Shown piece by piece: positions 63,384 through 64,000 of a DNA stretch of 64,000 bases. A program made the translations under genes and the position numbers. The notes under the pieces are model-generated. The model saw only the letters and a list, made by a program, of their open reading frames with translations, did not search any database and was not told where the DNA came from. This DNA comes from Escherichia coli (GTDB taxonomy: Bacteria; Pseudomonadota; Gammaproteobacteria; Enterobacterales; Enterobacteriaceae): NCBI RefSeq assembly GCF_003334305.1, contig NZ_QOWS01000021.1. The stretch is one strand, 5' to 3'. Within the stretch, counting starts at the first letter, position 1, and the number at the start of each line of letters is the position of its first letter.

Positions 63384-64000
63384 CTTGTAAAGCCTTTATC
63401 GTTTTTTTATGCTCTGGATTAATATAATCACTACATCTATCTGAGCAATCTGTTGTTGATGGACATGTCAACCCATGGTCATTTACAGCCAAGTCTTTTT
63501 TATTATCTTCAATCATTTCAGAATGGGATAGCTTTACTTTTCTGCCGTACATACCGAACAGATTTAACCCGTAATCTCTAATCTCTTTTTCATAACCCAG
63601 CCCTTTCGCCGATCGGCTAACACCAGCGTCATTTAATTTAGACACTCGACAAAATGCCATACAATGGAAAAATTGATCAGTCCCACCTAAATTTAATCTC
63701 TTCATATCTTCATAAGTATCAGATAATATATCCCATGCTCTTTGATGGTTTAGTTGATCTTTTCTTCTTATTAGCGCTACATCTGCGGGACTTAACCCTA
63801 ATGGATCAATACCATTCACCGGATTCAGCGGGTACGCATACAGACTCCATCCCCCCCTCCAGCCCTATCGGGTCCTGAGTGATATACCGCCCCTGCAACG
63901 GATCGTAGTACCGGTTCCGGTTGTAGTACAGCCCCGACTCCTTATCATACTGCTGCCCCGGCAGCCGGTACGGCTGGTGCAGGTGATGCGGGTTCTCCTC
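63364..64000 (-). pseudogene. Rhs-family C-terminal fragment: core end (PxxxxDPxGL-type motif) plus polymorphic toxin tip, interrupted by a frameshift in a homopolymer run; upstream part beyond window
   Basis: Minus-strand translation of 63868..64000 gives ...[33 protein letters not shown], then a 7-C run (63851..63857) shifts frame to ...[32 protein letters not shown]... (ORF 63364..63819). Confidence 0.7.

Follow-up and report, generated by a model that had tools for sequence, protein, structure and literature searches.

A probable inherited insertion of one base that disables an otherwise complete rhs toxin gene of Escherichia coli and spares its immunity gene

Introduction

When an rhs gene of Escherichia coli loses its reading frame at the point where the conserved core meets the toxin tip, is the break an inherited state of the gene, a reversible switch, or an error in the assembly? 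The question is raised by the last few hundred nucleotides (nt) of a 64,000-nt stretch of E. coli DNA (NCBI RefSeq assembly GCF_003334305.1, contig NZ_QOWS01000021.1; the whole stretch is termed the window herein), in which the end of an rhs gene, read on the minus strand, runs into seven consecutive Gs. The original prediction, made from the letters alone, offered three explanations for this tract: a fixed pseudogene in the form of an orphan Rhs C-terminal fragment such as is known near rhsD in K-12, a slippage-prone tract, and a sequencing or assembly error. We propose that the rhs toxin gene at the window end, complete in other respects, has very probably been inactivated by the heritable insertion of one base, with the immunity gene spared.

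Features of this kind are well known: among Rhs genes, frameshifts and orphan tips are commonplace, and the allele is already marked as a pseudogene in RefSeq. In the literature on ylbH, ybbD and rhsD we found nothing specific to the allele with seven Gs (G7), and what is mildly new here is the mapping of the contexts in which the allele occurs, together with a confident assignment of the tip as serum amyloid A (SAA)-like.

Results

Read directly, the minus strand contains ggaGGGGGGGatgg, in which the seven Gs occupy 63857..63851 and appear as a C7 run on the plus strand. The codons around the run are GAC CCG ATA GGG CTG GAG GGG GGG ATG GAG TCT, the homopolymer (63851..63857, minus strand) being made up of the last G of GAG (Glu) and the two GGG (Gly) codons. 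From position 64000 the frame encodes a canonical Rhs core end, continues for 14 codons past the run and terminates at a TGA at 63808-63806, and the 3′ end of the rhs core open reading frame (ORF) as read in the window spans 63806..64000 (minus strand). Both the frame-breaking run and the stop within about 15 codons that had been predicted are seen in the minus-strand sequence. The in-frame allele has six Gs (G6; GAG GGG GGA TGG), as is found at the same position in K-12, O157 and E110019. When one G is deleted in silico, the core end continues in frame through GLEGGW into a tip of 142 codons with an overlapping immunity-like gene behind it, and the effect predicted for one fewer G was correct except for the length of the tip, which had been put at about 130 amino acids (aa). 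Strain A7, with one G removed, yields a 1403-aa protein, and as it stands a product of 1256 aa. Two G/C runs of 7 or more were observed in the window against 5.8 expected from mononucleotide shuffles; the length of the run is itself not unusual, and what makes the run important is where it falls and what it does to the frame.

The same locus was compared across 5426 complete E. coli genomes with short probes, for which a single difference drops a match below 99% identity. The junction that holds the run was found, in any allele, in ~2620 of the 5426. The G7 sequence with the window's flanks, including a C at position 63832, had an exact match in 411 genomes, G6 with the same C in 4-6, and G6 with a T at 63832 (the K-12 type) in 2126, with other junction variants in ~84; a G8 allele was sought in the same 5426 genomes and had an exact match in 0. 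Position 63832 (minus strand) is a synonymous single-nucleotide polymorphism (SNP), TAC in the window and TAT in the K-12 type, and it is linked to run length: 14 G7 sequences (13 loci and the window) have the C in all cases but Z1323PEC0013, which has T, and among the loci examined G6 pairs with T apart from four genomes. The G7 sequences come from cattle, humans, swine, poultry, orangutan and echidnas, and from many countries, laboratories and platforms, and all eight of the genomes that are nearly identical to the window over 25 kb share its allele. This comparison, which had been suggested as a check on the original prediction, identifies G7 as a genuine, inherited and widespread allele.

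The locus at the window end is that of E. coli ybbP-rhsD-selU in reverse orientation, and the part of the rhs gene that lies beyond the window can be read from close relatives. Positions 39001-64000 are 100% identical to strain A7 and nearly identical to eight other complete genomes, and in both A7 and E2865 the rhs gene is a single ORF of 1256 codons that runs from its ATG to the stop right after G7 with no earlier stop (the A7-type ORF is labeled by PGAP as 'RHS element core protein', frameshifted). Extending the locus upstream in this way revealed a full Rhs core in A7, which matches the window at every position over 25 kb, and, within the A7 ORF, none of the in-frame stops that would make the fragment an orphan regardless of the run. 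The restored-frame sequence from the window end matches the NCBIfam models RHS_core NF041261 and TIGR03696 over residues 1-69, and full-length rhs genes at homologous loci encode 1360-1429 aa with DUF6531, RHS_repeat, TEN_YD-shell and PF03527. In the A7 Rhs, the N-terminus holds a literal PAAR sequence, for which no PAAR Pfam match is on record.

Alignment of fused and orphan versions of the gene places the recombination junction in the interval 63983..63998 (minus strand), within 20 nt of the window's end, where the sequence on the upstream side is of the main-rhs-core type and that on the downstream side is of the ylbH-orphan type. Base 63998 is G in 14/14 main-fused loci and A in 8/8 orphan loci (22 loci), and in the window it is G. 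A 183-nt probe over the junction, G7 and the SNP matched at ≥99% identity in 239 genomes, and the full-length fusion is hence present in over half of the G7 genomes. An orphan C-terminal fragment was considered for this strain and is ruled out by the uninterrupted core in A7 and E2865 together with the G at 63998. The pseudogene part of the original prediction therefore stands (411 genomes, 'frameshifted' in RefSeq), but its likeness to the orphan fragment near K-12 rhsD does not.

A separate observation on the rhs core is that SNPs fall in tight clusters between strains (locus L005 versus L001, L022 and L018), for example at A7 7634-7726 and 8852-8913, and this clustering suggests mosaic gene conversion among rhs paralogs.

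The position of the run matters in view of how Rhs proteins release their toxins. At the C-terminal end of an Rhs protein sits an aspartyl autoprotease, which doubles as the plug of the shell, and cleavage at PxxxxDPxGL, a motif defined in PMC3150448 and PMC8765631, is needed for toxin release (PMC8765631). The catalytic aspartates of P. protegens RhsA, D1324 and D1346, are 22 residues apart (PMC8765631). In the window, the GAC codon at 63872..63874 (minus strand), which encodes the Asp of QDPIGL, is by its spacing the putative first catalytic Asp and is still in frame. The putative second catalytic Asp codon, that of IDPLGL at 63805-63807 (minus strand), lies inside the PxxxxDPxGL demarcation and cleavage motif at 63793..63822 (minus strand), which is out of frame with the core through G7. 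The two aspartates are 22 residues apart in the restored frame, with G7 between them, and the motif and the tip are present but not in the core's reading frame. Since the frameshift falls between the autoprotease aspartates, the toxin domain is uncoupled from the delivery shell, and the 1256-aa product is predicted to keep the shell and to be without the second Asp, the cleavage site and the toxin. The window thus has the core end, the spacing of the two Asp residues and the PxxxxDPxGL motif of the Rhs/TcC autoproteases (P. protegens RhsA, Tc toxins), but unlike in those proteins the two halves of the active site are in different reading frames.

The toxin tip itself (142 codons, 63367..63792, minus strand, stop at 63366-63364) consists of a prok-SAA domain and a Cys-rich C-terminal extension. 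Single-sequence searches of the tip against Pfam and PDB gave weak matches only, and a family profile was needed to place it. An exhaustive HMMER search found homologues in 92 cluster representatives, many of them in frame after an Rhs core end, and in a 43-sequence alignment D39, H43, C44, C48, E70, D73, D100, N104, C116 and C120 are invariant and G107 is nearly so. Searched against PDB, the family profile retrieved structures of serum amyloid A with E-values from 8.6e-14 to 1e-6, and with the Pfam SAA model (PF00277) the E. coli tip has an i-E of 3.6e-4 and 27 of the 43 family members score at E≤0.001 (best 6.8e-24). The AlphaFold2 (AF2) model of the tip (pLDDT 96.6) is a helical bundle of six helices, in which the four-helix cone and short fifth helix that define prok-SAA can be recognized, and its top 7 Foldseek matches in PDB are all SAA1 or SAA3 (probability 0.99-1.0, TM(target) 0.67-0.74). 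The sNxxGR motif reads VNDHGL in the tip, with N and G kept and L in place of R. We are confident that the tip belongs to the prok-SAA family of the Lipocone superfamily and is a homolog of serum amyloid A.

Members of the prok-SAA family have been described as polymorphic-toxin tips that are predicted to attack lipid head groups or carriers, and Lipocone immunity proteins as transmembrane (TM)-anchored proteins or lipoproteins of the membrane or periplasm (bioRxiv 10.1101/2025.01.14.632903). The target of the E. coli tip would presumably be a periplasmic or membrane lipid. The tip resembles the prok-SAA/Lipocone toxins and vertebrate SAA in sequence and fold homology, and in its polymorphic-toxin tip position and membrane-anchored partner, but it has the L for R in sNxxGR and the extra Cys-rich C-terminal extension, and its activity is a predicted one. 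It contains six cysteines. In G7 genomes PGAP calls a 151-aa ORF from a GTG start (63364..63819, minus strand) as the 'hypothetical protein' WP_001013164.1, which is the stranded RhsD tip and not an independent gene.

The end of the tip is overlapped by 20 nt by an intact YbbD-family immunity-like gene that encodes 163 aa (62892..63383, minus strand), in a position that suits a cognate immunity gene. Its product matches NF011298 with 379.6 bits (cutoff 326) and PF26610 YbbD_head, has an N-terminal transmembrane segment at approximately residues 12-30 (Kyte-Doolittle 19-residue window maximum 3.37), and presumably plays a protective role. The gene includes a homopolymer of its own, a T8 run at 63137..63144 (minus strand; A8 on the plus strand), which when reduced to T7 leaves the gene as two pieces, of 86 aa and 57 aa. 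Exact matches to T8 were found in 529 genomes and to T7 in 1714, the latter including K-12 ybbD and O157:H7. The state of the window reads as toxin off and immunity on. A strict reciprocity between a broken toxin and an intact immunity gene held in the first clean haplotypes and was rejected, as it fails in E2863 and E2855 (G7 with T7) and G6 with T8 also exists.

The module of tip and immunity gene is found in several contexts. In K-12, rhsD (with a DUF4329 tip) and ybbC are followed by the module as an orphan, in which ylbH has G6 and is in frame and ybbD has T7 and is frameshifted. The K-12 ylbH-ybbD(-ylbI) cluster has in common with the window the tip/immunity module, the site between ybbP and selU and 99.75% identity over 1600 nt, but in K-12 the module is an orphan with G6 and T7, whereas in the window the K-12-type tip and ybbC are absent, the core is fused and the runs are G7 and T8. 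M8-like strains have the G7/C/T8 module in the orphan position, and in A7/E2865-like strains the module is fused to a full core. The G6/T/T8 module, with both genes intact, is found in orphans (loci L014 and L015) and in a fusion (L018) that encodes a 1360-aa Rhs and has its immunity gene intact. In O157:H7 (PV15-279, positions 2837-7503 of locus L007) there is a fused, in-frame, full-length Rhs of 1398 aa and the immunity gene has two frameshifts. A toxin frame left intact where immunity is not would be surprising, except if the toxin goes undeployed or does its producer no harm, and the six cysteines of the tip, together with this O157:H7 arrangement, would fit a toxin that does no damage in the cytoplasm of the cell that makes it.

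Discussion

We propose that two events underlie the allele in the window. Homologous recombination would have joined a full core, including the PAAR-motif N-terminus, DUF6531 and the YD shell, to a ylbH-type tip, and a G6 to G7 insertion would have occurred in the Gly-Gly codons of DPIGLEGGW at the 3′ end of the main rhs gene. The extra G would shift the frame between the two catalytic aspartates and end translation after 1256 residues, with the result that the toxin would be neither encapsulated nor, presumably, delivered, and the gene would be a loss-of-function pseudogene. The intact, membrane-anchored YbbD-family immunity protein may at the same time keep the cell protected from kin that still fire the toxin.

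There is experimental precedent for the first of these events in Salmonella Typhimurium LT2, where recombination between the main rhs and an orphan rhs has been demonstrated (Koskiniemi et al. 2014, PMC3967940). In both cases recombination at the short core fragment of the orphan fuses a delivery shell to the orphan tip, but the fusion arms Salmonella, whereas the fused tip of the window is frameshifted and would be unarmed. In E. coli the module appears to be lost piecemeal by lineage, the toxin frame having been lost in at least 411 genomes and the immunity frame in ~1700, with both kept in a minority. Intact alleles, of which E110019 has one, would lend themselves well to tests of the activity on lipids that is predicted for prok-SAA toxins.

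Several points weigh against a plain loss of the toxin with retention of immunity. The G7 call in this window rests on its identity to other genomes, and immunity is not kept throughout the G7 allele, as is seen in those G7 genomes that also have T7 (E2863, E2855). One synonymous SNP aside, the tip has undergone no further decay relative to the G6 alleles, and hence the frameshift is recent or the tip is still useful. In addition, the frame may be restored at a low level in the G7 allele.

Restoration of the frame is central to the alternative that the tract is phase-variable, such that slippage between G7 and G6 would reversibly switch the toxin OFF and ON in already-immune subpopulations, which we consider improbable. 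A G/C homopolymer of seven can slip, a second tract (T8/T7) sets the frame of the immunity gene and varies within lineages, and G6 with the G7-linked C does occur in G7 lineages, namely in FCI51, which is 5 SNPs away from the window in 25 kb, and in 2014C-3051, which has the core SNPs of E2865. However, the complete genomes hold no G8, and G6/C is found in 4-6 of them versus 411 with G7/C. Moreover, the length of the run goes with the SNP located 19 nt downstream of it, a linkage that rapid switching would erase. The G6/C genomes themselves are also of doubtful value as switched variants. Over 25 kb, five SNPs and three indels separate FCI51 from the window, and each of the indels is -1 in a homopolymer (G7, T8 and T6), which is a signature of long-read undercalling; 2013C-4081 also has T7 in its immunity gene; and 2014C-3051, which shares the E2865 core SNPs, carries one T more in a different T run. 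These three genomes were considered as true revertants and rejected, given the additional homopolymer indels in each, and they are probably long-read homopolymer miscalls. E110019, with a 1403-aa Rhs and an intact 163-aa immunity protein, looks like a genuine G6/C/T8 allele. In the probe counts and the four G6/C genomes examined, no tract-length variation among close relatives was found beyond sequencing error. The slippage-prone tract of the original prediction is not demonstrated, given the lack of G8, the SNP linkage and the other homopolymer indels in three of the four G6/C genomes. The known contingency loci usually have longer tracts. The window has in common with those of Neisseria, Haemophilus and Campylobacter a coding G/C run that sets the frame of a surface or competition factor, but its tract is short, has essentially two stable lengths and is tied to a SNP haplotype.

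A slower version of the same idea, in which the G tract and the immunity T tract together form a low-frequency reversible switch and a rare G7 to G6 slippage re-arms an already-immune cell, seems to us less probable still. If it were true, the widespread 'dead' allele would be a standing reservoir of armed variants and not a terminal pseudogene.

The stranded tip ORF, with its GTG at 63819, and the immunity gene might also be expressed on their own by re-initiation, as a toxin-antitoxin-like module. PGAP does call the 151-aa ORF, its GTG lies 11 nt upstream of the TGA at which the truncated core frame stops, and an orphan rhs of Salmonella has been reported to act as a toxin-antitoxin-like module (PMC7043789). 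However, a scan for promoters and terminators gave nothing above shuffle expectation and no promoter-like site for the 151-aa ORF, and inspection of the sequence revealed no obvious Shine-Dalgarno for it. Lipid head groups at the membrane or periplasm are the predicted target of the family to which this Cys-rich tip belongs, with a TM-anchored immunity partner, and a cytoplasmic copy would probably be inert; an intact toxin frame beside a broken immunity gene is, furthermore, tolerated in O157:H7. We consider independent expression of the tip to be very unlikely.

Recoding, by a +1 ribosomal frameshift on GGG-GGG-A or by transcriptional slippage, would allow some full-length toxin to be made from the G7 allele. 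A tRNA-Gly that re-paired by +1 inside the G run would yield precisely the protein of the G6 allele (GLEGGW), and there is a Shine-Dalgarno-like GGAGG directly 5′ of the run. Against this, the slip site is followed by neither a slow codon nor a stop codon, the next codon being AUG, and the frameshift is not conserved, as the majority allele and all of the distant homologs are in frame. G runs are also poorer substrates for RNA polymerase slippage than A/T runs. Recoding of either kind is in our view highly improbable. The least probable alternative of all is a sequencing or assembly error in a sequence that is truly G6, since, although homopolymer miscalls are common and are present at the rhs locus in other assemblies, the identical G7 occurs in 411 complete genomes, is shared by eight near-identical genomes over 25 kb and goes together with the C of the SNP haplotype, and this third explanation of the original prediction can be rejected.

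With the preferred reading of a heritable one-base insertion in place, a few observations on the locus and its surroundings can be added. Four RefSeq assemblies designated 'complete' (FCI51, RM10386, 2014C-3051 and 2013C-4081) differ from their relatives here by +/-1 in homopolymers of 6-8 nt, and because such differences make or erase apparent frameshifts in rhs and ybbD, the annotation of these genes depends on assembly quality. In the window, selU/mnmH (60796-61890) is followed by fragments of ylbG and ylbI, then by the immunity gene and the tip, and last by the core end. The ylbI-type remnant (62430..62525, minus strand; mapped from L001) comprises the first ~32 rhs codons (SGKPAARQGDMPQYGGPIVQGSAGV...) and is annotated as an incomplete pseudogene. 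It resembles the N-terminus of the A7 Rhs, including the literal PAAR, with apparently an ATT at the position of the ATG, and on this resemblance it looks like the stump of the 5′ end of another rhs gene. The other G/C run of at least 7 in the window is a C8 at 10535-10542 (plus strand), which is intergenic and lies ~70 nt upstream of a 113-aa ORF (MKKMLFSAALAMLITGCAQQ...), the product of which looks like a Bor/Iss-type prophage lipoprotein.
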